A stretch of 64,000 nucleotides of DNA from Chloroflexota bacterium (GTDB lineage: Bacteria; Chloroflexota; Dehalococcoidia; GIF9; UBA5629), in assembly GCA_037443085.1 (NCBI GenBank), contig JBBIPA010000002.1, forward strand, positions 13,739-77,738, read 5' to 3'. This document shows positions 756 to 52,688 of the stretch, piece by piece (position 1 is the stretch's first letter; each line of letters begins with the position of its first letter). Below the pieces are notes generated by a model, which made no database searches, was not told the DNA's origin, and saw nothing but the letters and a program-made list of their open reading frames with translations. Both the position numbers and the translations under genes were made by a program.

Positions 756-2072
756 TCATTTCCCCATGATCAGATTAGGGAGAAACAAAGCAATATTTGG
801 AAAGATTAAGATCAGCACTAAAGCTGTGGCTTGTAACGCAACAAACGGGAACACGGAGCTGTAAATATCTTTTATTGTAACTCCTGGAGGACTGATGCCT
901 TTCAGATAGAATAGATTCCATCCAAAAGGCGGAGTGATGTATCCCATCTCCAAGTTCATCACAAATAATATCCCAAACCATATAAGGTCGTAACCTAATG
1001 CGGTTACTACTGGAATATAGATGGGTAATGTAATTAGCGTAATGCCGCTGGGGTCTAAAATCATTCCCAGGAGAAAAATAGTGATCTGCATCCCTATAAT
1101 GATTAATATCGGTGCTAAATTTATATCGGTAATAGTTTTACGGATTAAGTCGGTTGCTCCGAGTCCATTGTAAATAGATGCAAATGCAGAAGCTGCTGCG
1201 ATAATCCACATTACCATAGCTGTGGGCTTGAGAGTCTCTATGGCAGCATCTCTTAGGTTGTGCCAGTTAAATTTGCGATAAATGACGGTACTAATGATAC
1301 TGGCGAGTGCTCCAAGGGCGGATGCTTCTGTGGGAGTAGCGATTCCAGTAAAAATAGTACCGAGAACAGCGGCGATAATGAATATTGGTAAGATGACAAA
1401 CCTTATTGAGTTTATTTTTGTGCTCCAGCTACCTCGATCAGCCAGTGGTAACGCTGGTCCCAGGTTCGGTTTAAGCAGACATCTAATTCCGATATAGGCT
1501 ATAAATAAACCTGAGGTCATCAAACCAGGCACTATTCCCCCAATGAACATGCGACCAATAGATACCTGTGCAATAACACAATAAATAACCATGGCAATGC
1601 TGGGGGGAATTAAGATTCCCAGTGCGCCTCCAGCGAGTATGCATCCGATGGCAATATCTTTGTTATATCCACGTCTAAGCATGGCCGGTAAAGCTACAGT
1701 TCCCATAGTTAAAGTGCCAGCGGCGCTGACGCCACTCATGGCAGCGAAGATGGTGCATATTACTACTGTTCCCATGGCTAGGCCTCCATTTACAGGGCCG
1801 AACCAGTGATGCATCGTAGTATAAAGAGCATTGGCTATACCGGAGCGTTCCAGGAATTGGGCCATGAGGATAAATAAGGGAATGCACAGGAGCAGGAAGT
1901 TGTTCATATAGTTGAAAACGGAACTCGAGATGACCATTAATGATGTTGGTCCCCAGAGCGTAAATGCAAAAATAACTGCACCACAGCCAAGACAAAAAAC
2001 AATGGGAAGTCCTGTTGCTAAAAGTGCGAACAGGAGCAAGAACATTAAGATAGTAATGAGTTCAACGCTCAA
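756..2072 (-). CDS. dctM: TRAP transporter large permease subunit (DctM family)
   Basis: 438 aa polytopic membrane protein with a typical DctM sequence pattern, overlapping the dctQ stop. Confidence 0.9.
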   Translation of the reverse strand: MSVELITILMFLLLFALLATGLPIVFCLGCGAVIFAFTLWGPTSLMVISSSVFNYMNNFLLLCIPLFILMAQFLERSGIANALYTTMHHWFGPVNGGLAMGTVVICTIFAAMSGVSAAGTLTMGTVALPAMLRRGYNKDIAIGCILAGGALGILIPPSIAMVIYCVIAQVSIGRMFIGGIVPGLMTSGLFIAYIGIRCLLKPNLGPALPLADRGSWSTKINSIRFVILPIFIIAAVLGTIFTGIATPTEASALGALASIISTVIYRKFNWHNLRDAAIETLKPTAMVMWIIAAASAFASIYNGLGATDLIRKTITDINLAPILIIIGMQITIFLLGMILDPSGITLITLPIYIPVVTALGYDLIWFGILFVMNLEMGYITPPFGWNLFYLKGISPPGVTIKDIYSSVFPFVALQATALVLILIFPNIALFLPNLIMGK

Positions 2073-2568
2073 TTTTGGTTACCCCGGTAATAACAAAAAG
2101 ATTTCTTATAAAATCTGCAATAATCTGTAATATAAGCAAAGATGTGCCTATAGGAATCATCAATTTCACAGGATATACCGGTACATGCCATATCGTATCT
2201 GACATTTCCAGCCACTTAATCGAGCTTGAAGCCATACCTATCGATTTCCAGAGCAGGGCACTACAAAAAATTAGAGCAAATATTGTTGTACTTACATCTA
2301 TCAAGGCTTTTCTTTTTACTGACAGACGGCCGTAAAAGAGATCCATATTTACCATTGCTTTGTTCTTCAGGATATAGCCACCAGCTAGAACCCACATTGT
2401 TCCGAAAACATACAAGCTCAATTCATGAACCCATATTGTCGGACTGTTAAAAACACGTCGCATGATAACTTCATAAACGATTATGAGCATGATGACGATT
2501 ACAAACAGACTAATGATTCTGCCTAGCCATTCATTAATGTAGTTTATCGAATTTATTATTTTAGACAT
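2062..2568 (-). CDS. dctQ: TRAP transporter small permease subunit (DctQ family)
   Basis: 168 aa, 4-TM protein immediately upstream of and overlapping dctM. Confidence 0.8.
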   Translation of the reverse strand: MSKIINSINYINEWLGRIISLFVIVIMLIIVYEVIMRRVFNSPTIWVHELSLYVFGTMWVLAGGYILKNKAMVNMDLFYGRLSVKRKALIDVSTTIFALIFCSALLWKSIGMASSSIKWLEMSDTIWHVPVYPVKLMIPIGTSLLILQIIADFIRNLFVITGVTKIER

Positions 2569-2668
2569 TTGAATCAGTCTAAATTTGGAATAAAAATACT
2601 TGACTAAATATGTTAAGGGTGACTGGGGGAATATTTTCCCCCAGTCGAAACGAAGGGAAGGTGTCGGA

Positions 2669-3754
2669 CTATTTAATTCTACCTAGTTCTCTGAAGTAAT
2701 TTTTCACTATAGTTACCCCTTCTTTACAGTACTTGTCTCTTGCTTCCAATTCATTCCACACGTCGATTGCGATATTCTGCATATTTTGTAGCTCAGCTTC
2801 TGAGAATTGAACGAATTCGACACCTGCTGCTCTAAATTCAGCGGTTGCTTTTCTATTATATGATGCAGTGCCAATTAGAGTGCACCATACTGAATAGTAG
2901 CGGCATACATAGTCCAAAGTTATTTTAAGATCGTCCGATAAAGCATCCCAGGTTTTAAGGTTTACCAATAGGTCAATAGGATCGGCCCTTGTGATCGAGG
3001 GATTCATTAAGAGATACTTGCAGATTTCTTGATGCTTTAACGCATAGTGCTGCTCATATCCCAATATAGCACCATCAATGGTTCCAAGTTTTAGTGCCAT
3101 ATAGATTTCGCCCATCGGAAGATTCACAGCGCTGGCGCCAAGTTTCGTCATAAAATGGCCTAGCGTTCCAGTAGCTCTTATTTTCTTTCCTTTCAGATCG
3201 CTGACTGACCTAATAGGTTCTTTTGTCATTAGGCAGGCACCGGTACCTAATTCAAATCCCAGTAAATAAGCCCCCTGTTCTGCATATGCTTTTCGTAGCA
3301 CATCCTGCAGTCCTTTGTCCCACATTAATGTCCATGTATCCTGAAATGATTGGGACGCAAGTGGCATCCAATACTCTACGGAGCCGACTGGCATTTTGGG
3401 CGCCCAGAAGGTACCAACAGTTTGAGCCATTTGGACTGCTCCCTCGGCAACTGCAGCGGGAAGTTCAGCATTGGGCACTAATGAATCCATAGGATACGTT
3501 TCTATTTTTATTTGTCCTTTTGTAGCGTAATTCACCTGATCTTTAAAAAAGGAAAGGTAGATTTTATACCTATCATCACCGGAAGGAGCAAATGTAGCAA
3601 GTTTCCAGACCATTTGCTTTGCAGGTGCAGTTGCAGGGGATGTTGGTGTCATCCCCAAGCTTGGGTTGGGTTTTTCAGGACTACATCCGTATGATATGGA
3701 TAAAAGAATGGAAATTAAGATGACGCATGTAACAGCTAAAAATACTTTTTTCAT
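2669..3754 (-). CDS. dctP: TRAP transporter periplasmic substrate-binding protein (DctP family), lipoprotein
   Basis: N-terminal MKKVFLAVTCVILISILLSISYGC lipobox and a DctP-like body, preceded by an AAGGAGG RBS. Confidence 0.85.
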   Translation of the reverse strand: MKKVFLAVTCVILISILLSISYGCSPEKPNPSLGMTPTSPATAPAKQMVWKLATFAPSGDDRYKIYLSFFKDQVNYATKGQIKIETYPMDSLVPNAELPAAVAEGAVQMAQTVGTFWAPKMPVGSVEYWMPLASQSFQDTWTLMWDKGLQDVLRKAYAEQGAYLLGFELGTGACLMTKEPIRSVSDLKGKKIRATGTLGHFMTKLGASAVNLPMGEIYMALKLGTIDGAILGYEQHYALKHQEICKYLLMNPSITRADPIDLLVNLKTWDALSDDLKITLDYVCRYYSVWCTLIGTASYNRKATAEFRAAGVEFVQFSEAELQNMQNIAIDVWNELEARDKYCKEGVTIVKNYFRELGRIK

Positions 3755-3840
3755 TTTAATAAACCTCCTTTTTCAATTATGAGAGCTTATTTAAAAGATG
3801 TTTACATTTTTTATTCGTTACCTCCATTTCATGATTGATA

Positions 3841-4821
3841 CTATTTATGTACTGTGTACTGCACTCCATATCTTTCAGGATATTTCTTCAAATCTTTTTC
3901 AAATATTTCGATTATTTTGTCGGGAGTATCATACTGTGGTTTCCAGCCCCATTCTTCTCTGGCATAGCTATCATCAAATACTTTAATAATATTATGAGCG
4001 CGGGCTACGGGGAGAGATAAATCATCTTTATACGTAACCCTAGTTTCGGGGAAACGTTTCTGAAGAAATGTTTCAATATCTTTAGCATAAACAACATCTG
4101 GAACCCCTGTAACATTGTAATTAATCATTTTTATATTCTCTTTTGGCGCTTGCAATATCATATCTGCAGCACTAGCGGCATCTCTTACATATGTCATAGA
4201 AATTGTCGACTCTGCAGTAGCATAGATACAATTGTGTGGTTTGCCCAGTATGGCATCTTCAATCATCAACGGTGCCCAGTGACCTGGTGTACGAACGCCT
4301 GGCCCAATTATCGGAGTATAACGAACCGACCGGAAGTCTAGGCCAAACTTGTTACGGTAGAATCGCCCTATGCACTCACCGTATAGTTTGCAACAACCAT
4401 ACATACTAATGGGACGCTGAATGCTAAGATCTGTACATGCCTGGTCCACATGCAAACCAAAAGTCCCAATACTACTGGCGAACATCACCTTTTCTACAGA
4501 GAAAAGTCTAGCAGCTTCTAATACGTTGTAAGTTCCGATGACATTCGTTCGGAAAGAAACCCATGGATTACTATCAGATATAAAAGTAAGTACGGAGCCC
4601 ATATGATAGATTTCTTTAATATCATAATCCTTTATAGCATTAATTACTTCAGAAAAGTCACAAAGGTCTCCTCTGACAACTTTAACTTTGTTCTTAATGT
4701 CATTTATTCGGTAATGGTTGATAACAACATCGAATAGAACCACCTCTTCACTACGATCAACAAGTATGTGTGCAAGTTCCGCACCTATATATCCCGTTCC
4801 ACCCGTAATGAGTTTCGCCAC
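3841..4821 (-). CDS. NAD-dependent epimerase/dehydratase (SDR family, GalE-like)
   Basis: N-terminal GGTGYIGAEL Rossmann motif, 326 aa, 86 nt upstream of dctP on the same strand. Confidence 0.8.
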   Translation of the reverse strand: MAKLITGGTGYIGAELAHILVDRSEEVVLFDVVINHYRINDIKNKVKVVRGDLCDFSEVINAIKDYDIKEIYHMGSVLTFISDSNPWVSFRTNVIGTYNVLEAARLFSVEKVMFASSIGTFGLHVDQACTDLSIQRPISMYGCCKLYGECIGRFYRNKFGLDFRSVRYTPIIGPGVRTPGHWAPLMIEDAILGKPHNCIYATAESTISMTYVRDAASAADMILQAPKENIKMINYNVTGVPDVVYAKDIETFLQKRFPETRVTYKDDLSLPVARAHNIIKVFDDSYAREEWGWKPQYDTPDKIIEIFEKDLKKYPERYGVQYTVHK

Positions 4822-5075
4822 TGTATTTTTCTCCGTCTGCTATCTGTAAAATATCTTCTCTACAGGTCTTACACCACCTGTATCAAAACGAAAATCTCTA
4901 GTGTCAAAAATAAGACTGCTTGATTTAAATAGAGCCGGGTAGGGTGTATTAATCTTAAAAGTTGACTTTTGGAAATACAAGATGCTTTTGCCCATGTACT
5001 AATGGCCATTGTCTGTATATATGGGACATGCTATCATTACCTGCAAATATAACCTGTAATCATGTCTCTTTATAG

Positions 5076-5777
5076 GTGAATGCCGTGGAAACATGTGAAC
5101 CAATTGGTCGCCATCAAGATAAAACCACTATTATGCTGGCGGATGACCATCCACTCATACGTAGAGCAGTTAGGGATGTTCTGGAGGAAGTTGAGGATTT
5201 TAAAATTGTTGCAGAAGCCAGCGATGGTGAGGAAGCCGTGAAACTTGCCATGGAGCTTAATCCAGATGTGGTCCTTATGGACATAAGCATGCCTGGCCTA
5301 AATGGTTTGGAAGCAACTAGGGAAATTTTGTCAAAGTCTCCCCAGATTAAAGTATTGGTGTTGACGGTTCATACAGAAACCGAGCATATTCTAGGAATAT
5401 TGGAGGCTGGCGCTGCTGGCTACCTGACAAAAAAGGTATTTGGTCCAGAGATTATTCATGCAATCAGGGCACTGGTTTCCGGTGAATCCGTTCTTTCTGA
5501 AGAAGTCCAGAGGAAGGTTATTCGTCATGCGATTAAGTACATGCCGAAAGTTACCGCCTTGGGTCAACGAGAAAAACTCACGGTAAGAGAAAAGGAAATA
5601 CTACAGTGCATTGCTCTTGGCATGAGCAACAAAGATATTGCTAATAAATTAAACCTCAGCCAGCGAACTATAAAGAATTATCTTGCTGAAATTTTTTCCA
5701 AGCTTAGGGTGAATTCGAGGACCGAAGCTGTTATCTGTGCTGCGCGAAGTGGTTTTATTAGCATTGACCCTCAGTAA
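5076..5777 (+). CDS. Two-component response regulator, NarL/FixJ (LuxR) family. The true start is probably the internal MLADDH at 5133.
   Basis: REC domain (LADDHPLIRRAVRDVLE...DVVLMDISMPGLNG) plus a C-terminal LuxR HTH (REKEILQCIALGMSNKDIANKLNLSQRTIKNY). Confidence 0.85.
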   Translation: MNAVETCEPIGRHQDKTTIMLADDHPLIRRAVRDVLEEVEDFKIVAEASDGEEAVKLAMELNPDVVLMDISMPGLNGLEATREILSKSPQIKVLVLTVHTETEHILGILEAGAAGYLTKKVFGPEIIHAIRALVSGESVLSEEVQRKVIRHAIKYMPKVTALGQREKLTVREKEILQCIALGMSNKDIANKLNLSQRTIKNYLAEIFSKLRVNSRTEAVICAARSGFISIDPQ

Positions 5778-6873
5778 AATAAATCACTGCAATTTGGCTA
5801 ACCATATGGAAAATCAACACAAAAACAATTTAATAATATGTAACGTTCATTTCTGGATTATCGTTCTTATGATAATGGGCATTACTCTGCTGTATTACGG
5901 ACGAAATCTTAATGTTGCTGACGGTTTCCCTTGGTTTGACGCAATAAGGATTTTGGAAATTGCCTATAGTGTTCACGGCAGTTTATTTACAATCCCGTTT
6001 ATTTATGCGGCTTTTGTTTTTGGCTGGCGGGAGGCTATTATAGTCTGGTCGATCTCCTTGTCGATTATATCGTTTAAGATCTTCAATCTTTCCTTTGGCC
6101 CTGCCCCATTAGTGCGCAATATTTTATCTTCGCTGATTCCTTTGTCTGTGGTTATTTTTTTAACTCTCGAACAAAATAGGAGAAAAAAAGAAAGAGAGAG
6201 CTTAAAAAAACGCGAGGATGAAAGAAGGTTGTATTTAGGTCAGGTGATTAAAGCACAGGAGGATGAGCGACATCGTATTGCACAGGAACTGCACGATGAC
6301 TTCTTACAGTCATTAATAGTCATTGCTAACCGTGCTCATAAACTAATGCTTAATAATGGCAGAGGTTCTGCCACGCATGCGGAGCAGGTTTGTTATATAA
6401 GGGATGAGGCCCTTCGGCTTTCCGAAGATTTACGGAGGTTAAGTCGTGATTTAAGACCTAGTATTTTGGATAATCGAGGATTAGTATCGGCTCTGAGAGA
6501 ACTGGCAGCTCGTTTTAATCAGGAATATGGAATCCATACAAATGTTATTACTGATTCATTATCTTCGAAGATCAATCCAGAAGCTGAGGTTATGTTATTT
6601 CGCATAATTCAAGAAGCCTTAAACAATGTTAGACGCCACGCAGAAGCCACTGAAGTTACAATTAGCGTGAAATGTCTTTCAAAACACCTAAAACTGATTG
6701 TGAAGGATAATGGTAAGGGCTTCGATATACCAAAACCAATTAGTCGTTTCACGATCGAAGGTAAGCTAGGGATCGCTGGAATGCGTGAAAGAGCCAAATA
6801 TCTGGGGGGTAATATTTCTATTACCTCTCAAAAAGGCAAGTATACCATACTAGAAGTTACTTGCCCGAAGTAA
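5737..6873 (+). CDS. Sensor histidine kinase (membrane domain, HisKA_3, HATPase_c)
   Basis: N-terminal TM helices, an H-box HRIAQELHDDFLQSL, and the C-terminal ATPase motifs NNVRRHAEA, DNGKGF and GIAGMRERAKYLGG. Confidence 0.8.
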   Translation: MLREVVLLALTLSKINHCNLANHMENQHKNNLIICNVHFWIIVLMIMGITLLYYGRNLNVADGFPWFDAIRILEIAYSVHGSLFTIPFIYAAFVFGWREAIIVWSISLSIISFKIFNLSFGPAPLVRNILSSLIPLSVVIFLTLEQNRRKKERESLKKREDERRLYLGQVIKAQEDERHRIAQELHDDFLQSLIVIANRAHKLMLNNGRGSATHAEQVCYIRDEALRLSEDLRRLSRDLRPSILDNRGLVSALRELAARFNQEYGIHTNVITDSLSSKINPEAEVMLFRIIQEALNNVRRHAEATEVTISVKCLSKHLKLIVKDNGKGFDIPKPISRFTIEGKLGIAGMRERAKYLGGNISITSQKGKYTILEVTCPK

Positions 6874-40200: not shown

Positions 40201-40527
40201 ATGACAAAAACGTCGACCGGACTTGGGGAGAACGTTGCCGGGTTGTTGTGCTATGTCGTAGGCTGGATAACAGGTGTGATATTTATCATCATCGAAAAAG
40301 ACAATAAGTTTGTCCGCTTCCACGCCATGCAATCAATAATTGTGTTCGGCATACTCACTGTAGCTCGCATCCTTCTGGGGTGGATACCGTTTATTGGCTG
40401 GATTTTCGGCATTATCATCGGGATACTGGCTTTCATCCTTTGGATTATCTTAATGGTTAAAGCCTACCAGGGAGAAAAATACAAGCTCCCCTGGGCAGGC
40501 AGCTTTGCCGAGAAACAGGTCGGCTAA
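40201..40527 (+). CDS. DUF4870 family membrane protein (stand-alone)
   Basis: A strong AAAGGAGGAGG RBS before MTKTSTGL. The LLCYVVGWITG...FVRFHAMQSI pattern is shared with the N-termini of the two HD-GYP fusion genes. Confidence 0.6.
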   Translation: MTKTSTGLGENVAGLLCYVVGWITGVIFIIIEKDNKFVRFHAMQSIIVFGILTVARILLGWIPFIGWIFGIIIGILAFILWIILMVKAYQGEKYKLPWAGSFAEKQVG

Positions 40528-42203: not shown

Positions 42204-42279
42204 TTAAACCTTTTTGCGGGCAGCACGTATAATAGCTTTCATACCCACTTTCCTGCAACTTCTCTCCCCAAAAAATATG

Positions 42280-42308
42280 TTGACACCATCACTGAGCAGG
42301 TCTATACT
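42280..42308 (+). promoter_or_regulatory. Sigma-70 promoter (TTGACA, 17 nt spacer, TATACT) giving a near-leaderless transcript for the GalT-like gene
   Basis: An exact -35 hexamer and a 5/6 -10 match; the predicted start site is about 7 nt before ATG 42322. Confidence 0.45.
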
Positions 42309-42321
42309 CAAACGCAAACAA

Positions 42322-43365
42322 ATGATTCGCTTTAGAATCCACAAAGAAAAAGCTCTGCTGCATAACCCGCTCAAGGAGTTTGAGCTTGAGGCGCAGCCCA
42401 TAGAGTACCGCGTCGACCCACTTACTGGTTTCACCTCGACTTTCCACACCCGCCCTGCCTCGTCGCCGGTGATATATCAGATTGATGAAGCTGTTGTCAG
42501 CAAACTGGCCACCGAGACAGAGGTAAACTGCCTGTTCTGCCCGGACAAAGCTGGCACCGCCACCCCGAAATTCCCCGCCAGTCTAATACCTGACGGCAGA
42601 ATGAGCCGGGGTGAAGCCACCATGTTTCCCAATCTCTTTGCCCAGAAAGGGCATTCTGCCGTCATCGCCCTGAGCAAAAAGCACTTTCTCAGATTAAACG
42701 AGTTCCGCCCTGATATTCTGTACAACGCACTTAAATTAGCCGAGTTTTACCTGCGGCGCGCTTACGAGGTGGACGGCATAAAATACGCCGAGATCGGGCA
42801 GAACTATCTCTACCCCAGCGGCTCCAGCGTGCCCCATCCCCATATCCAGGCATTAGCCTCCTACTATCCCTATTACCTGCTCAAGCTCTACATGGCGAAG
42901 GCCAGAGAACACTACCGGAAATACTCGCATAACTACTGGGATGAACTGGTCAGGAAAGAAAAACGACTGAAGGTGAGGTATCTGGGTGCTTTGGACAACA
43001 CCGAGTGGTTCATCCCCTTTGCCCCCAGCCGCCATGACGAGGTGAACTTTGTAGTCCGGGGTAAGTCCGATTTCCTGGAGTTTGACGACTCCGACTGGAA
43101 GAGCCTGGCTGATGGGTTGAGCCGTGTGCTACAGTCTTATCACGATGCCGGGCTGTCCTGCTTCAACTTTGCCATGTATTCTGCTCCTTTGGGAAAGAAG
43201 CTCAACTATCTCTGGGCTGGAGGCAAAATTGTCTCCCGCTCCAGTGTGCAAACGTTCCCTACCAGCGATGTCTGGTATGGTCCCAATATACTCCTTTACG
43301 GTTTTATCACCGTGCCGCCGGAGGAGGTGGCCAGAACTATCCGTCCCTATTTCGCCGAGCCATGA
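42322..43365 (+). CDS. Galactose-1-phosphate uridylyltransferase-like HIT-family protein
   Basis: SSVPHPHIQ histidine-triad motif (HxHxQ) and the GalT-like CxxC region (CLFCPDKAG). The start is taken at MIRFRIHKEK, downstream of the promoter. Confidence 0.7.
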   Translation: MIRFRIHKEKALLHNPLKEFELEAQPIEYRVDPLTGFTSTFHTRPASSPVIYQIDEAVVSKLATETEVNCLFCPDKAGTATPKFPASLIPDGRMSRGEATMFPNLFAQKGHSAVIALSKKHFLRLNEFRPDILYNALKLAEFYLRRAYEVDGIKYAEIGQNYLYPSGSSVPHPHIQALASYYPYYLLKLYMAKAREHYRKYSHNYWDELVRKEKRLKVRYLGALDNTEWFIPFAPSRHDEVNFVVRGKSDFLEFDDSDWKSLADGLSRVLQSYHDAGLSCFNFAMYSAPLGKKLNYLWAGGKIVSRSSVQTFPTSDVWYGPNILLYGFITVPPEEVARTIRPYFAEP

Positions 43366-44323: not shown

Positions 44324-45598
44324 GTGTCAGGTCTGACACCAAACACCGGCTGGGTGGGTAGCTCGACCACCATGATCGTCTCCAGCAACAACTTCCCCAT
44401 AGAAGGTGACTATAAAATCATGTGGGGCACATCCCCCAAATTCGACGATGGCAAAGCTATCATAGTCAAAGAAGGCACCTCTCCCAGAGGCAACCAAGTC
44501 GTAACCGTCAGTTTTCCGATTCCTGAAGCTGCCTTCGGGATGTACTACGTAGGATTCGTCCGCCCTGGCCGTGATGACCATACCATATTCTCATTCAATG
44601 TCCTGCCCCGTCTGAGCGTCCAGCCTGTTTCGGCGTCACCTGGCAACACCGTCACCATCTATGGCACCGGCTTCCCCGCCAACGATGCTATCTCTTTTAC
44701 TTTCGATAGTAAGTCCACTGAAGCCAATACCACCGCCAATAGTAATGGTAGCTTCACCACGGGTTTTACCATTCCCGGCGCCGTTGCTGCGGAGCACCAG
44801 ATATCAGCTAAGTCATCAAAGTTAACCAGTACTCTCGCCCCGGCCATAATGGTGGTGAAACCGGGGATTGCCGTCAACCCTCAATCGCCTCAAGCTGGTG
44901 GCAATGTCACTATTACCGGGCGTGGTTTTGCTGCCAAGGTGCTGATAGCCATCAAGTACAATGAGCATGTTATTACGAACTCGCCAACTACCGATGACAC
45001 GGGTAACTTCACCTATAGCTTTGCGCTACCTCCAAGCGCTGAAACAGGAATAAGATTAGTGGCTACCGACCCCCTGGGCAATACCACCACATTCTCGGTT
45101 GGAAGTAAGACGCCATCGTCGCCACCACCACCATTACCACCGTCTCCAATGCCGGGAGCACCCCAGAGCCCCGTCACGACAACGGGCAAAACGCTGCCCA
45201 AGCCAGCAACAGTAGCGCCCAAAGAAGAAAGCTTCGGTTTATTTGGTGCCCAGGAGGTGACCTTTGTCTGGACACAGGCATCCTCTTTCCCCGGTAACAT
45301 CACCTATACCCTGGAAGTGTCCGGCAACCATAAATTCCAGTCGGCTAAGAAAGTGTCTGGCATTGCCCAGACCAACCACACCCTTAAGCTGGAGGCAGGC
45401 ACCTATTACTGGCGCGTTAAAGCGGTTGGCAGCCTGGGCAATGAAAGTGAGTGGGCTAACTCGCGGTACAGTTTCAAAGTAGGCTCGCTGCCAGTCTGGC
45501 TGATTGTCATCGGAGTCATTATTTATCTCGTCATCTTCTGGCTGCTCGTCCGAACACTGCTGCGCCGGCGAAATCGTGACCCTTACTACGATTACTAA
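44324..45598 (+). CDS. Cell-surface protein with Ig-like/FN3-like repeats and a C-terminal TM anchor. The conservative call is a GTG start at 44324; the in-frame upstream signal-peptide ORF (44216-44302, ending at a TGA) is discussed in the findings.
   Basis: Repeated beta-rich modules (NVTITGRGF, TVTIYGTGF), a Pro-rich linker PSSPPPPLPPSPMP, and a C-terminal anchor LPVWLIVIGVIIYLVIFWLLV followed by RRRNRD. Confidence 0.6.
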   Translation: MSGLTPNTGWVGSSTTMIVSSNNFPIEGDYKIMWGTSPKFDDGKAIIVKEGTSPRGNQVVTVSFPIPEAAFGMYYVGFVRPGRDDHTIFSFNVLPRLSVQPVSASPGNTVTIYGTGFPANDAISFTFDSKSTEANTTANSNGSFTTGFTIPGAVAAEHQISAKSSKLTSTLAPAIMVVKPGIAVNPQSPQAGGNVTITGRGFAAKVLIAIKYNEHVITNSPTTDDTGNFTYSFALPPSAETGIRLVATDPLGNTTTFSVGSKTPSSPPPPLPPSPMPGAPQSPVTTTGKTLPKPATVAPKEESFGLFGAQEVTFVWTQASSFPGNITYTLEVSGNHKFQSAKKVSGIAQTNHTLKLEAGTYYWRVKAVGSLGNESEWANSRYSFKVGSLPVWLIVIGVIIYLVIFWLLVRTLLRRRNRDPYYDY

Positions 45599-47078: not shown

Positions 47079-47228
47079 GTTGAATTCAAACGAAGGTAAT
47101 CATCCCGGGAAACATTAATTTTCAAGCTGGCCTGCTGAAATCCCTAAACAAAAAGGCAGATTTCATCGTTATACTCTATCAACACTACAAGGACCATTAG
47201 TATTATGGCTATTCATGGAAGGAGTTTG

Positions 47229-48371
47229 ATGTTCGATTATCAGGCGTTGCAGAAAACAGGCTGTTTTCCCAAACAGCTTCAGTACAAGCACGTGACGTTT
47301 AGCTGGCATCTTAAAATACAGCAAATATATGCTGCTATCAGGCAGCACGCCACTATTTTCGGGCTCCTCTGTTACGTAGTTGGTTGGATATCGGGAATAG
47401 TTATGCTGTGCGCAAAGAGGCAAGACAGCTTCGTCCGTTTTCATGCCTGGCAATCTATTGTACTGTTCGGCATATTGACAATACCCATAGTAGTTCTCAA
47501 CACAATTCCTCCTGCCGGCGACATCGTCTATGAAATCTTAATTGCTCTGTACTGGATTGTCATAGCCCTTACCGTCATCGTCTGGATTATGCTCATGCTC
47601 AAAGCCTATCATGGACAGGTCTACAGTGTGCCGCTGGTCAGCGGTATAGTATCTGCGCTCTCTAATGTTCAAAATATAAAGACGTATCCTGTAATATCTA
47701 TAGCAGCGGTCGAAGAGTCCGGAAGCCCGGCAGCCATAACAGTGGCGACTAAACTGGAGACGGAAACCCGGCAGGAGGTCAGAAGGTTACATGGAGTATT
47801 AACCGAAGCAGTCAGGTCCATTGTAACCCTGTATGAGACTAGAGACCCTTATACTGCTTCTCACCAGCATCGAGTAGCACAACTGGCCTGTGCCATCGCC
47901 CGCGAGATGGGGCTTCCCGAAGATAGTATTGAAGGCATCCGTATCATGGGAGTTATGCATGATATCGGCAAGGTTGCCGTGCCATCGGAAATCCTGAGCA
48001 AGCCGGGCAAAATAAGCGATTATGAGTTCGGCATTATCAAGACTCATCCCAGAGTGGGCTATGACATATTGAAAGGTCTGGAGTTTCCCTGGCCGGTGGC
48101 GCAGGCCGTATTCCAGCACCACGAAAGACTGGATGGTTACGGTTACCCCAATGGTCTTTCCGGGGAAGACATTATACTCGAGGCGAGGATTCTCGCTGTG
48201 AGCGACGTGGTTGAAGCCATGGCCTCCCATCGTCCTTACCGACCGACATTGGGCATAGATGTGGCTCTTAAAGAAATTTCACAGAAAAAGGGCATTTTCT
48301 ACGACAGTAAGGTGGTAGAAACTTGCTTAATGCTATTCACCCGGAATCGATTCAAATTGGAGCAGGACTAG
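47229..48371 (+). CDS. Membrane-anchored HD-GYP domain phosphohydrolase with an N-terminal DUF4870 domain (paralog A)
   Basis: The N-terminal LLCYVVGWISG...FVRFHAWQSI TM domain; an HD motif (HDIGKV) and a GYP motif (HHERLDGYGYPNGL). The start is moved to ATG 47229 (MFDYQ), which has a GGAAGGAG RBS. Confidence 0.75.
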   Translation: MFDYQALQKTGCFPKQLQYKHVTFSWHLKIQQIYAAIRQHATIFGLLCYVVGWISGIVMLCAKRQDSFVRFHAWQSIVLFGILTIPIVVLNTIPPAGDIVYEILIALYWIVIALTVIVWIMLMLKAYHGQVYSVPLVSGIVSALSNVQNIKTYPVISIAAVEESGSPAAITVATKLETETRQEVRRLHGVLTEAVRSIVTLYETRDPYTASHQHRVAQLACAIAREMGLPEDSIEGIRIMGVMHDIGKVAVPSEILSKPGKISDYEFGIIKTHPRVGYDILKGLEFPWPVAQAVFQHHERLDGYGYPNGLSGEDIILEARILAVSDVVEAMASHRPYRPTLGIDVALKEISQKKGIFYDSKVVETCLMLFTRNRFKLEQD

Positions 48372-48537
48372 GCAAAAAGCCATTCCGACAGACGTTCTCT
48401 TTTACCCCATTACTGCCGCCCAACCAATCTCATCATAATTGACCCGATATCGCAGACTGGGTCAATATCTTTAACCTGGTAGCCGCATATTTTAGCTGCC
48501 GTTTTGATGTATAATGCAGGTTAAGGAGGGAGCTGTC

Positions 48538-50805
48538 ATGGAATATGTATACTCGTTTCACAGCGACTGCGAGGATAAGGCTGTCCTGGGTAACAAGGGA
48601 GCCAACCTGGTAACTATGACCAAGCTTGGGCTGCCAGTTCCTGCCGGATTTATTGTCTCTGTTGAGGGATATATTGAATATAAAAAGAGTGGTCGTCTGC
48701 CGGAAAAAGAGATCGTGCAGGCACTTGCTGACCTTGAGAAACAAATGCATGGAAAACTGGGTAATGGCCTGAAACTTTCAGTCCGCTCATCGGCGCCGGT
48801 ATCCATGCCCGGTATGATGGACACCGTGCTCAATATCGGCGGACTGGCTGAGATGAGAACGGCCATAAAGCGCATCTTTGATTCCTGGGATAACCTCCGT
48901 GCTGTTGAATACCGCCGCCTCAATAAGATTCCGTCAAATTTAGGCACATCCGCCGTCGTCCAGGCGATGGTATTTGGTAATAAGGATGCTCTGTCCGGGA
49001 CAGGCGTTGTCTTCAGCCGAAATCCCAGCACCGGAGAGAAGGGGTTATTCGGTGAATATATCGAATGTGCCCAGGGCGAAGATATCGTATCTGGAACCAG
49101 AACACCAGTTCCCATTTCCCATCTTCAGTCTGCAATGCCAGATGTATATGAAGAGCTGGTGCAGAAAGCCACCTTCCTTGAGAGACATTTTCGGGATGTG
49201 CAGGACATCGAGTTCACTATTGAATCCCGCAAACTCTACATTCTGCAAACCCGGTCGGCGAAAAGGAGCGGGCAGGCTGCGGTAAAAGTAGCCGTAGATA
49301 TGGTGCACGAAGGCCTCATCACTCAGGAAGAGGCTATTCTTCGCCTAAGCCCTGACGATCTGAGGGCGCTTTTGCACAAGCATATCAAGTCTACTCAATC
49401 ACATGAACCCCTGACCAGAGGTTTGGCTGCAGCGCCGGGCGCCGTAAGTGGCCAGATAGTATTTGGTGTGGCTGAAGCTATGAACCTGGCCAGGAAAAGC
49501 ATTCCTGCCATACTGGTCAGACCGGAAACCAGCCCGGACGATATCCAGGGGATTGCTGCTGCCGATGGAGTGCTCACATCAAGAGGCGGGCTGACGTCCC
49601 ATGCCGCTATAGTAACCAGAGCAATGGGCAAACCCTGTATCTGCGGAGCCGAAGACATCGAGATAGACCTCAAAAAGGAGCAATTAACCTGCAAAGGACA
49701 GACTTTGCGCAGAGGAGACATTATCACCATAGACGGCACCAGCGGTATGGTTTATATCGGCACTCTTCCGTTAGAGGAAGGAACCATGATCGAAGAGCTT
49801 GAAGAGTTGCTCACCTGGACGGATGGTGCCAAGCGGCTTGGGGTTAGAGCCAATGCCGACGTACCGGAGATGGTGGCACAGGCTATCAGGCTCGGCGCCG
49901 AAGGCATCGGCCTCTGTCGAACGGAGCGACAATTCAATGGGCCAGAGCGCCTTTCTGCTATCAGGGAATATATAATGGCAGAGACCGCCGGCCAGAAGGC
50001 AGCGGCGCTGGTACATCTCAGCAAGCTTCAAAAAGAGGATTTTGTCGCACTGTTCAAAGAATTAAAGGGGCTGCCGATTATCATCAGGCTTCTTGATTTA
50101 CCGCTCCATGAGTTCCTTCCTTCGGAGGCAGAGACCAAGGACGAGAGGATTAAACAACGCATAGCTGAGCTTAAAGAGATTAATCCTATGCTGGGACACC
50201 GCGGTGTGCGGGTTGCAGTAACCAACCCCGATATCTACAAAATGCAAATCGAAGCCATAGAGGCAGCGAAGAAGGAAGTCCCGGCAGACGTCTCCGTTAT
50301 GATCCCTCAGGTTATCACATCGCGAGAACTGATAATGATCAGGAAAAGCTGTGTTGAAGGTTCTACTCTCCAGGTAGGAACCATGATGGAAACAGTCCGC
50401 GCTTGCATGAGGGCTGGGCGATTAGCCAGAGAGGCAGCCTTTCTTTCTTTTGGTACCAATGACCTCACCCAGGCGGTGTTCTCTTTTAGCCGGGAAGATG
50501 CCGAAAAGAAATTCCTCTCCACATATCTGGAAATCGGCATTCTCGAGGATAATCCCTTTGGAATCATCGATGTTAAAGGTGTGGGGCGGCTTATGGAGAC
50601 GGCCATATTCTGGGCACGAAGGGCTAAGAAGGACATTCAAATCGGTGTCTGTGGAGAGCAGGCTGGTGAGCCGCGTTCGATAGCCTTTTTCCACGCAATT
50701 AACGTTGACTACGTAAGCTGCAGTCCTTTCCGTGTGCCCATCGCCAAGCTCATTGCAGCACAGGCAGCCATCAAGCAGAAGGAGCAAGCTGAAGTCAAAG
50801 TATAG
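48538..50805 (+). CDS. ppdK: Pyruvate phosphate dikinase family PEP-utilizing enzyme (compact, about 755 aa)
   Basis: N-terminal YVYSFHS...LGNKGANLVTMTKLGLPVPAGF, a phosphohistidine motif GGLTSHAAIVTRAMGKPCICG, and a C-terminal PEP-binding FLSFGTNDLTQAVFSFSRED. The start is ATG 48538 after an AAGGAGGGAG RBS. Confidence 0.8.
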   Translation: MEYVYSFHSDCEDKAVLGNKGANLVTMTKLGLPVPAGFIVSVEGYIEYKKSGRLPEKEIVQALADLEKQMHGKLGNGLKLSVRSSAPVSMPGMMDTVLNIGGLAEMRTAIKRIFDSWDNLRAVEYRRLNKIPSNLGTSAVVQAMVFGNKDALSGTGVVFSRNPSTGEKGLFGEYIECAQGEDIVSGTRTPVPISHLQSAMPDVYEELVQKATFLERHFRDVQDIEFTIESRKLYILQTRSAKRSGQAAVKVAVDMVHEGLITQEEAILRLSPDDLRALLHKHIKSTQSHEPLTRGLAAAPGAVSGQIVFGVAEAMNLARKSIPAILVRPETSPDDIQGIAAADGVLTSRGGLTSHAAIVTRAMGKPCICGAEDIEIDLKKEQLTCKGQTLRRGDIITIDGTSGMVYIGTLPLEEGTMIEELEELLTWTDGAKRLGVRANADVPEMVAQAIRLGAEGIGLCRTERQFNGPERLSAIREYIMAETAGQKAAALVHLSKLQKEDFVALFKELKGLPIIIRLLDLPLHEFLPSEAETKDERIKQRIAELKEINPMLGHRGVRVAVTNPDIYKMQIEAIEAAKKEVPADVSVMIPQVITSRELIMIRKSCVEGSTLQVGTMMETVRACMRAGRLAREAAFLSFGTNDLTQAVFSFSREDAEKKFLSTYLEIGILEDNPFGIIDVKGVGRLMETAIFWARRAKKDIQIGVCGEQAGEPRSIAFFHAINVDYVSCSPFRVPIAKLIAAQAAIKQKEQAEVKV

Positions 50806-50880
50806 TTTGATGGGCATTCCGCTGTGCTACCATGTACTTTAGCCTGTCACTATGCTTTACTCTTGATAACGGAAGTCGGC

Positions 50881-52083
50881 ATGGTCAACGTAACACCCAG
50901 ACTGGCACTGATAACTAGCTCGATTACTGCCGTGAGAGCGAAGTTGGCAGAACGTATCAAACTGTTCTACTACATGTGCCTGACGGCAACCCGGCAGCTC
51001 CAGGTTCAGTATAAAGCGGCGATTGACAGACTACCGTTCAACAAGCTGGGACTGCTCTGTTACCTGTTTGGCTGGATATCTGGACTAATAATGTTGTTCT
51101 CGAAGAAGGAAGATAGCTTCGTCCGCTTTCATGCCTGGCAATCCATTGTAACGTTCGGCATAATGACAGCATTGGTGGTGTTTCTCAATTTGCTTTCCCC
51201 TGCTGAAGATATTGTCCACCTGGCTTTGACGATTGTGTACTGGCTGGTTATTGCCTTCATTGTGTTCCTGTGGGCTGTGCTCATGCAAAAAGCCTATCAG
51301 GGACAGGTCTACGGACTGCCCATGGTCAGCGATGTAGTCTCCGGACTCTCCGGCGTTGAGGCTAAAAAGAGTCCTCCCCAGAGCCCTGCGGTGGCAATTG
51401 AAGAAGTCAGAACCGCGACAGCTGTAGTAGCGACGCCCGCAGAAGAGGGGGTAACCGGACAGGACACTGACAGACTACGCGGGGTGCTGACCGAAGCAGT
51501 GAGGTCCATAGTGACCCTGTGTGAGACCAGAGACCCCTACACCGCTTCTCACCAGCATCGAGTGGCGCCACTGGCCTGTGCTATTGCCCGGGAGATGGGA
51601 TTTCCCGAAGACCGTATTGAAGGCATCCGTATTATGAGCGTTATCCATGATATCGGCAAAGTAGCCGTGCCTGCAGAGATTCTGAGCAAGCCGGGCAAAA
51701 TAGGCGACTATGAATTCGGCATTATCAAGTCACACCCCAAGGTTGCCTATGATATCCTCAAAGGTTTAGAATTTCCCTGGCCGGTAGCACAAGCCATACT
51801 CCAGCACCATGAGAAATTAAACGGCTCTGGCTATCCCAGCGGGCTTTCCGGAGACGACATCATACTCGAGGCGCGGATATTGGCGGTGAGCGATGTGGTT
51901 GAAGCCATGTCCGCTCATCGTCCTTACCGACCGGCATTGGGCATAGGAGCCGCCCTCAAGGAGATTACCAAGAATAAAGGCATACTTTATGATGCCGCTG
52001 TCGTCGAAGTCTGCTTGAAGCTTTTCCACCATAAACACTTCAAACTGGATCAGGATGAGGTAAAAAGCAAATCCTCAAAGTAG
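50881..52083 (+). CDS. Membrane-anchored HD-GYP domain phosphohydrolase with an N-terminal DUF4870 domain (paralog B)
   Basis: About 80% nucleotide identity to 47229..48371 across the HD-GYP region (HDIGKV; HHEKLNGSGYPSGL). The start (MVNVTP at 50881) is tentative. Confidence 0.7.
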   Translation: MVNVTPRLALITSSITAVRAKLAERIKLFYYMCLTATRQLQVQYKAAIDRLPFNKLGLLCYLFGWISGLIMLFSKKEDSFVRFHAWQSIVTFGIMTALVVFLNLLSPAEDIVHLALTIVYWLVIAFIVFLWAVLMQKAYQGQVYGLPMVSDVVSGLSGVEAKKSPPQSPAVAIEEVRTATAVVATPAEEGVTGQDTDRLRGVLTEAVRSIVTLCETRDPYTASHQHRVAPLACAIAREMGFPEDRIEGIRIMSVIHDIGKVAVPAEILSKPGKIGDYEFGIIKSHPKVAYDILKGLEFPWPVAQAILQHHEKLNGSGYPSGLSGDDIILEARILAVSDVVEAMSAHRPYRPALGIGAALKEITKNKGILYDAAVVEVCLKLFHHKHFKLDQDEVKSKSSK

Positions 52084-52115: not shown

Positions 52116-52688
52116 TTATTGTGGCGGTTTGTCCTTGCACTTGACTGCCCGGTAATAACCACCATCGGCACAAGCCCTGCAAAAAGTAGCCCCTTCACGA
52201 ACGACAGCTCTGCCGTCCACCACCCGTTCTCCGCAGGCAGCACATACTGCTCTATCCCTCGGCGGTCCCGGCAGGTCGTTTTCCGGAATCGTAACCTGTA
52301 CTTGCTGTAGAATTACCATATCGTCGTATGGAGTTTGGGCAATAGCCCGGATTATTTCCTCCTTGCCCCCTTTGGTGGAGAAATCCTCTCTGATAGTAGC
52401 CCGCACCGCCTTGCCAGTGGGGATGTTCACGAATGTGGCGGCAAACTTGCCATAATCAACGTGTTTCAGAGAACGCCTCCCCAGAGAGCAGCCGGTAATT
52501 GCCTGCACGGCATCGGTCATGCAGCGGTCAATCTCGGCATAAACAATGAGGTCTCGTGTTTTCCGTGATGGGTCCAGACCCAGCGCACGCATTGCTGCCA
52601 GTGTTATCTTGGTGCCCATGGCTATCCCCACGCAAACACCACCGTGGAACTTAGCCGCCACTTCCAGGTGAGCATCGAAATCTTCCAT
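52116..52688 (-). CDS. FmdE/FwdE family protein with a C-terminal zinc ribbon
   Basis: FHGGVCVGIAMG (an FmdE FHGHxCPG-like motif) and a C-terminal CAACGERVV...CRAC. Confidence 0.7.
   Translation of the reverse strand: MEDFDAHLEVAAKFHGGVCVGIAMGTKITLAAMRALGLDPSRKTRDLIVYAEIDRCMTDAVQAITGCSLGRRSLKHVDYGKFAATFVNIPTGKAVRATIREDFSTKGGKEEIIRAIAQTPYDDMVILQQVQVTIPENDLPGPPRDRAVCAACGERVVDGRAVVREGATFCRACADGGYYRAVKCKDKPPQ

Follow-up and report, generated by a model that had tools for sequence, protein, structure and literature searches.

HD-GYP enzymes are the less-studied class of phosphodiesterases that degrade cyclic di-GMP (c-di-GMP), and the signals sensed by their N-terminal domains are mostly unclear. 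Another widespread family, the HOTT/DUF4870 membrane domain, is represented to our knowledge by magnetosome proteins as its sole studied members. Here we describe two genes, designated A and B, that encode a fusion of these two modules. They lie in a 64,000-nucleotide (nt) stretch of a Chloroflexota genome (Dehalococcoidia; assembly GCA_037443085.1, contig JBBIPA010000002.1; hereafter the window), on either side of a gene for pyruvate, phosphate dikinase (ppdK). We consider it probable that A and B are anciently duplicated, membrane-anchored HD-GYP phosphodiesterases, both of them functional, belonging to a small family that is named only from Chloroflexota.

Several described systems invite comparison. 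Among HD-GYP proteins, the trinuclear subclass (PmGH, TM0186 and PA4108) converts c-di-GMP to GMP and carries an acidic residue at the position of PmGH E185; the members of the binuclear subclass studied so far stop at pGpG (10.1101/2021.11.05.467447). The same census describes proteins in which an integral-membrane N-terminal domain, MASE9 to MASE12, precedes a cytoplasmic HD-GYP domain, the order also found in A and B, and MASE9 and MASE11 contain an intramembrane hairpin, as is predicted for HOTT. The HOTT family, to which MamF, MmsF and MmxF belong, has been shown to be distantly related to plastid Tic20; it is found across dozens of phyla and has been called 'completely uncharacterized' (PMC11628618). 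HOTT is the literature name for PF09685, which Pfam listed as DUF4870 and has renamed MamF_MmsF in its newer releases. Known HOTT proteins are small and stand alone, and MamF-like members are implicated in membrane-protein assembly, whereas A and B join the domain to a second-messenger phosphodiesterase. The features of the locus are as follows.

47229-48371, + strand: gene A, a HOTT(DUF4870)-linker-HD-GYP protein of 380 amino acids (the open reading frame, ORF, opens at 47205; likely start ATG 47229)
47334-47666, + strand: predicted HOTT/DUF4870 membrane domain of gene A, residues 36-146 (re-entrant-like helix pair, KRQD charged loop, two long membrane helices, amphipathic helix)
47667-47783, + strand: variable linker of gene A, residues 147-185, predicted to be disordered
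47784-48371, + strand: HD-GYP domain of gene A, residues 186-380 (from the alignment to PmGH 4mcw, family-invariant columns and Foldseek)
48538-50805, + strand: ppdK, encoding a 755-residue short form of pyruvate, phosphate dikinase (TIGR01828, 952 bits; cut-off 843)
50881-52083, + strand: gene B, the paralogous HOTT-linker-HD-GYP protein of 400 amino acids (ORF; HD_5, 123 bits)
51022-51354, + strand: predicted HOTT/DUF4870 membrane domain of gene B (in register with the gene A domain, 3688 nt away; Pfam DUF4870 over residues 75-170 of a 419-residue ORF)
51472-52083, + strand: HD-GYP domain of gene B (motifs; HD_5, 123 bits)
40201-40527, + strand: stand-alone HOTT/DUF4870 gene of 108 amino acids (PF09685, 42.6 bits; cut-off 25)

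This layout bears out the first-pass annotation of the window, which was made by a model from the sequence and had placed two same-strand genes around ppdK and a separate DUF4870 gene upstream; the TIGR01828 and PF09685 scores given above confirm the latter two identifications. The ATG of gene A at 47229 is its probable start, with a Shine-Dalgarno sequence, GGAAGGAG, 5-12 nt to its 5' side. The ORF of ppdK opens at 48514, and its probable start, ATG 48538, is preceded by AGGAGG. Gene B probably starts at ATG 50881, preceded by GGAAG; an alternative GTG at 50824 would give a protein of 419 residues. The three genes are separated by gaps of 166 nt (A to ppdK) and 75 nt (ppdK to B).

Both proteins contain an HD-GYP domain, as had been proposed from their motifs. 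Pfam HD_5 matched gene A with 118.2 bits and gene B with 123 bits (cut-off 27.2), and Pfam HD scored 77 and 69 bits in the two proteins (cut-off 22). The signature motif reads HHERLDGYGYP at residue 297 of gene A and HHEKLNGSGYP at residue 309 of gene B, both forms being permitted by the census motif HHExh[D/N]GxGYP (10.1101/2021.11.05.467447). Within it, H297, H298, E299, G303, G305, Y306 and P307 (gene A numbering) are invariant in 46 family members. Alignment to PmGH (4mcw) equates gene A residues H212, H244, D245, H273, H297, H298 and D326 with the binuclear metal ligands H189, H221, D222, H250, H276, H277 and D305, respectively, and all seven are invariant across the 46 members and present in gene B. 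The other HD-GYP residues of gene A are K248, KPG at 258-260, E299, GYP at 305-307 and RPYR at 335-338; K248, KPG and RPYR likewise recur in gene B and do not vary among the 46 members. The c-di-GMP-binding motifs KPG and RxY[K/R] occur in both proteins, the latter as RPYR in each, and the motifs of gene B follow one another in the order RDPYTASHQHRV, HDIGK, KPGK, KSHP, HHEKLNGSGYP, SDVVEAM and HRPYRP.

At the position of the third-metal ligand, PmGH E185, gene A has Tyr208, which lies within the family-invariant sequence RDPYTA[SGA]HQ. A tyrosine in place of this glutamate assigns the family to the binuclear subclass by the census rule (10.1101/2021.11.05.467447), and A and B are predicted to be binuclear enzymes that cut c-di-GMP to pGpG. 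The binuclear phosphodiesterases PA4781 (4r8z) and DvhD (9rbz) resemble A and B in fold, in the seven metal ligands and in the HHExxD/NGxGYP, KPG and RxY[K/R] motifs. They likewise lack the PmGH E185 ligand, so that pGpG would be the expected product here too. The difference lies at the N-terminus, where proteins of the PA4781/DvhD type have a REC or PAS domain and A and B have the HOTT/DUF4870 membrane domain. V-cGAP3 of V. cholerae (5z7c) has PYTAGH and RPYR in common with A and B but, unlike them, consists of tandem HD-GYP-like domains and has no membrane domain.

An AlphaFold2 model of gene A, built from the 46-sequence family alignment, had a mean predicted local distance difference test score (pLDDT) of 80.7, with most of the catalytic domain above 85 and linker residues 148-174 below 50. 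The model shows the all-alpha HD-GYP fold. By sequence, the closest solved relatives are V-cGAP3, PmGH, DvhD and PA4781, with V-cGAP3 (5z7c) the best at E 6e-38. By structure, Foldseek returned c-di-GMP-bound DvhD (9rbz) at E 1.4e-12 with a target TM-score (TMt) of 0.79, PmGH (4mcw) at E 5e-11 and PA4781 (4r8z) at E 4e-10; V-cGAP3 ranked 18th.

The membrane domain of gene A aligns at 45% identity (E 2e-25) with the stand-alone DUF4870 protein encoded at 40201-40527, its nearest relative in the window. The best 120 matches of a domain profile (E 1e-31 to 3e-39), in a search that covered at most 8000 candidates, all carry PF09685; they are proteins of 107-144 residues, either stand-alone or zinc-ribbon-DUF4870 forms, and the few with a named organism come from Dehalococcoidia or Chloroflexi. 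The fusion proteins contributed to the query alignment but are not among the matches of this search, which was therefore not used for counting fusions. PF09685 itself was matched at E <0.01 in 17 of the 46 family members, and precomputed tables also give PF09685, often flagged as weak. A and B share both the signature residues and the predicted architecture of the HOTT family (PMC11628618), and LCY, W, G, FHA and QS are invariant across the fusion family.

A domain-only AlphaFold2 model (pLDDT 92.5, predicted TM-score 0.82) places helices at 2-12, 18-27, 32-56 and 64-92 together with a charged KRQD loop, and the break between the first two helices falls at the invariant CY..GW. The model thus reproduces the published HOTT architecture of a re-entrant-like helix, a charged loop that is conserved, and another two helices in the membrane (PMC11628618). 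When it was compared with 350,542 PDB chains by Foldseek, the two best matches were 7vcf_W and then 7xzi_B, both from the Chlamydomonas TOC-TIC supercomplex, although the match names neither chain as Tic20. For 7vcf_W the query TM-score (TMq) was 0.56 and the root-mean-square deviation 3.5 over 95 columns, with a probability of 0.99. Searched as a profile against PDB sequences, the HOTT alignment gave no match and hence no link to Tic20 at the level of sequence. Taken together, the 45% identity, the profile matches, the modelled architecture and the TOC-TIC matches support the assignment of the A and B membrane domain to HOTT.

Since the first element of the domain is re-entrant, both HOTT termini would lie on one side of the membrane. 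Positively charged residues are concentrated in loop 1 and the N-terminal extension. A topology with the N- and C-termini inside and a cytoplasmic HD-GYP domain would fit these charges, the zinc ribbons that flank HOTT in its relatives and the cytoplasmic location of the substrate. MASE domains differ from this predicted arrangement in having 6-8 membrane segments and several output types, whereas HOTT consists of two helices besides a re-entrant pair and occurs alone or with zinc ribbons among the best 120 matches. In that same set we did not find two or more output types behind HOTT, the property by which a MASE-type domain is recognised.

A and B are clearly paralogous. The proteins are 65% identical over 366 residues (BLASTP E 2e-175), and at the DNA level a single ungapped alignment of 1118 nt joins 47270-48386 to 50958-52074 at an offset of 3688 nt (blastn, 676 bits, 71% identity), far more than chance would give. 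The 1.1-kb direct repeats around ppdK described in the first-pass annotation are therefore present, and since the repeat starts and stops within the coding regions, no flanking DNA was duplicated. The identity of about 80% that it had put on the whole genes proved too high. The measured value is 71% and varies by region: the linker reaches 52%, HOTT 68% and the HD-GYP domain 78%; the higher figure holds for the HD-GYP core, where the best 300-nt block is 83% identical. A stretch that had been singled out as nearly identical matches at 68 of 78 positions (87%), and the longest identical run between the genes is 21 nt.

Between A and B the synonymous divergence (dS) is 1.07 and the ratio of nonsynonymous to synonymous divergence (omega) is 0.25 overall, with values of 0.085 for the HD-GYP domain, 0.32 for HOTT, about 1.1 for the linker and 0.8 for the N-terminal extension. 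Gene conversion was considered as the cause of the 83% block and rejected, because dS in the HD-GYP region is 1.28, no lower than elsewhere. The higher nucleotide identity of the core is instead due to amino-acid constraint. By comparison, ppdK and its orthologs in three relatives differ by a dS of 0.44-0.51, and a neighbour-joining tree places gene A as sister to a clade of gene B and the family members P0002, P0003 and P0004. This placement and the dS values show that the duplication predates the split of these relatives and that selection has retained both copies. The duplication of A and B is old, both copies are under purifying selection, and the linker between HOTT and HD-GYP evolves neutrally.

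The family is small. A search of 5.8 billion proteins recovered about 50 clusters that share the architecture over at least 87% of gene A, and those with a named organism are from Chloroflexota, Chloroflexi or Dehalococcoidia. Public databases already contain such proteins, labelled generically, for example as 'HD domain-containing phosphohydrolase'. Among proteins clustered at 50% identity, 120,747 representatives matched the query (E <=0.001), and the full-length fusions among the best 150 were only P0009, P0126 and probably P0127, from which we conclude that the architecture is rare. A scan of species-representative genomes with HD-GYP-only peptide patterns found at least 80 generic HD-GYP loci; none of the 80 listed covered a HOTT domain. 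Zn_Ribbon_1 is matched in 22 of the 46 members; these make up a sister clade in which HOTT and HD-GYP are separated by a CxxC...CxxC zinc ribbon (for example P0028, P0032 and P0036, the last at 6001-7251 of contig L094); some members of this clade have a second, N-terminal ribbon.

We could not find a description of this rare combination in the literature. The census of HD-GYP architectures (10.1101/2021.11.05.467447), which covers MASE9-12, never mentions DUF4870 or Tic20, and the HOTT paper (PMC11628618) mentions no fusions. In the literature searched, no paper brings HD-GYP together with Tic20 or MmsF, nor with HOTT in the sense of this family; in the few cases where 'hott' does co-occur with HD-GYP, the word is used in an unrelated way. 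The impression in the first-pass annotation that the membrane-anchored form was undescribed agrees with this search.

Comparison with related genomes bears on the bracketing of ppdK. In two metagenomic relatives (L004 and L007) the 3' end of ppdK, about 90% identical to that of the window, is followed directly by an ortholog of gene B (P0002 and P0003, 77-81% nucleotide identity); both contigs begin inside ppdK and so cover only its downstream side. The third, L093, has 3x coverage and a ppdK that is 90% identical; immediately upstream of this gene is a segment of 210 nt that is 90.5% identical to gene A and only 76% to gene B. There, homology to the window stops 5 nt past the ppdK stop codon, and the next gene, on the opposite strand, encodes an ABC-2 permease, with no gene B. 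Within positions 1-830 of this contig, 124 nt corresponding to 48269-48392 of the window and spanning the end of gene A are missing, and ppdK is split into ORFs of 109 and 612 residues; these lesions could reflect decay into pseudogenes or an assembly error at 3x coverage.

Further afield, genomes whose pyruvate, phosphate dikinase (PPDK) is 84-89% identical have no HD-GYP gene adjoining ppdK, and each shows a different context. Family members 55-64% identical to gene A lie in unrelated neighbourhoods, and no conserved partner gene was seen across the thirteen genomic contexts examined. As judged from these contexts, the A-ppdK-B bracket is a feature of a narrow Dehalococcoidia lineage, in a group with fluid gene order, and not a conserved functional module; the arrangement with ppdK is probably incidental. 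Gene A is immediately preceded by a promoter-like site, and neither the A-ppdK nor the ppdK-B gap contains a terminator-like site. With gaps this short between genes on one strand, and no terminator-like site in them, co-transcription of the three genes is possible.

Two observations were made beside other family members. Directly upstream of P0007, a 189-residue protein consisting of a PK_C domain only is encoded (L006, 7202-7771), a faint hint at pyruvate or phosphoenolpyruvate (PEP) metabolism that is probably coincidence. In L001 (11206-12666) and L095 (807-2147) a PAS-rich protein is encoded within 2-4 kb of the HOTT-HD-GYP gene, and that of L001 also has an HD-GYP domain. These neighbours fit the reported abundance of HD-GYP domains in Chloroflexi (10.1101/2021.11.05.467447).

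The ppdK product itself is a short form without roughly positions 100-200 of the TIGR01828 model, in the N-terminal nucleotide-binding domain. A damaged gene (a 763-residue ORF with about 100 model positions missing) was considered and rejected, since more than 100 homolog clusters have 748-763 residues. As the named clusters among them come from Dehalococcoidia or Chloroflexota, the short PPDK is a trait of the lineage.

These results suggest a working model for A and B. The HOTT module, with its re-entrant-like pair and two transmembrane helices, would put both protein termini in the cytoplasm, and an unconstrained linker of about 40 residues and a long helix would lead into the HD-GYP domain. 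From their residues, A and B would be inner-membrane c-di-GMP phosphodiesterases that make pGpG. The HOTT module would tether the enzyme and probably retains its native behaviour, which for MamF-like members comprises oligomerisation and interaction with membrane proteins (PMC11628618). Its oligomerisation would then respond to something in the membrane and thereby govern both the dimerisation and the activity of HD-GYP. We infer that HOTT does more than tether because the invariant residues of stand-alone HOTT proteins are kept and the domain is under constraint. The fuller proposal, in which HOTT is a signal-receiving or client-engaging module whose membrane state gates c-di-GMP hydrolysis, is speculative and in our estimate improbable. 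Such a state could be, for example, engagement with inserting membrane proteins, or lipid or envelope stress. The A-ppdK-B arrangement would have arisen in a narrow Dehalococcoidia lineage, possibly as a single transcription unit.

Several observations weigh against parts of this account. The DUF4870 match of both fusion proteins, 21.0 bits, falls under the Pfam cut-off of 25 bits, so the DUF4870 reading of the first-pass annotation draws its backing from the 45% identity and the profile matches and not from the Pfam score. The structural matches to the TOC-TIC chains, on which the likeness to Tic20 is based, have weak E-values of 0.2-0.5 (0.21 for 7vcf_W and 0.49 for 7xzi_B). V-cGAP3, which has been called cGAMP-specific, also carries RPYR, and hence the RxY[K/R] motif does not settle substrate specificity. 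The window yielded neither a GGDEF, EAL or PilZ gene in a six-frame motif scan nor a c-di-GMP riboswitch with Rfam, so that c-di-GMP signalling in this host is an assumption. No GGDEF, EAL, kinase or cyclase domain is fused to HOTT among the best 120 profile matches, which would fit a plain anchor equally well. Finally, co-transcription with ppdK is inferred solely from gaps that are short, lie between genes on one strand and contain no terminator-like site.

A serious rival concerns the membrane domain, which might be a passive tether without a regulatory role, leaving a constitutively active phosphodiesterase localised at the membrane. The 120 best relatives of HOTT show no fusion to another output domain, which counts against a sensor role and speaks for such an anchor, and the disordered, neutrally evolving linker would be a poor conduit for a conformational signal. 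However, the domain keeps LCY, W, G, FHA and QS at an omega of about 0.3, more constraint than a generic anchor needs, and the zinc ribbon in the linker of the sister clade suggests that the junction matters. We regard a passive tether as a real possibility, if the less probable one. The substrate could also be 3'3'-cyclic GMP-AMP (3'3'-cGAMP), alone or besides c-di-GMP. The top PDB match by sequence, V-cGAP3, shares PYTA[GS]H and RPYR with A and B, and according to the census the Gua2 pocket can take adenine; yet the shifts to cGAMP recorded there involve RxxQ or RxxN where A and B have RxYR (10.1101/2021.11.05.467447). Moreover, by structure c-di-GMP-bound DvhD is matched best and V-cGAP3 comes only 18th, and no cGAMP synthase is visible in the window, which together make a cGAMP enzyme unlikely. 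It is also conceivable that the HD-GYP domains are catalytically dead and serve as c-di-GMP receptors or protein-interaction modules, as degenerate HD-GYP domains do exist (for example Bd1817). With the binuclear ligands and substrate-binding motifs intact and invariant in the family, and omega at 0.085, this seems very improbable, and active binuclear phosphodiesterases are the reading we retain.

The remaining alternatives assign a role to ppdK. A and B might be functionally coupled to it, for instance in an operon linking c-di-GMP turnover to PEP/pyruvate metabolism. The common strand, the short gaps free of terminator-like sites, the promoter-like site before gene A, the recurrence of the adjacency in three close relatives and the PK_C-domain gene adjoining P0007 all lean this way. 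Against them stand the genomes with 84-89% identical PPDK and no HD-GYP neighbour, in contexts that all differ, the unrelated surroundings of the members at 55-64% identity and the absence of gene B past ppdK in L093; coupling is accordingly a doubtful proposition, and one we think improbable. The first-pass annotation had suggested instead that the direct repeats could support recombinational excision or amplification of ppdK. Repeats of about 1.1 kb at a distance of 3688 nt would in principle allow this, but they are 71% identical with no identical run longer than 21 nt, and a dS of 1.07 without any low-dS patch argues against recent exchange. RecA-dependent recombination drops steeply at a divergence like that of A and B. 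A look for ppdK deletions in related genomes had been proposed as a check; L004, L007 and L089-L093 show no deletion, no amplification and no hybrid A/B gene; L093 keeps ppdK without the downstream gene B. We consider recombination through these repeats close to negligible as an explanation, and the preferred reading remains that of an old duplication with both copies retained.

The HOTT-HD-GYP fusion extends the known range of HD-GYP architectures by a membrane module and offers a tractable handle on HOTT function, with phosphodiesterase activity as the read-out. If gating by HOTT were true, it would provide the first functional handle on the HOTT family and link second-messenger turnover to membrane-protein biogenesis in Chloroflexota. 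The significance is otherwise modest, since the family is small and named from uncultured Chloroflexota, nothing conflicts with current understanding and the bracketing of ppdK is seemingly incidental.

Some further features of the window deserve mention. It contains no tRNA gene and no Rfam family at the gathering threshold. Just downstream of gene B, on the opposite strand (52116-52688, - strand), lies the gene for a 190-residue protein in which an FmdE domain is joined to a C4 zinc finger of the DksA/TraR type. Upstream of gene A, a 383-residue ORF (42214-43365, + strand) has no Pfam match and a weak match to galactose-1-phosphate uridylyltransferase (25 bits; cut-off 448), and a putative surface protein of 424 residues (44324-45598, + strand) combines Ig-like domains of the TIG and Big_6 types with a proline-rich stretch; at its C-terminus, basic residues come after a hydrophobic anchor. 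Positions 2001-6000 have a GC content of 0.39-0.40, compared with about 0.52 elsewhere in the window, and may be foreign or otherwise atypical DNA.

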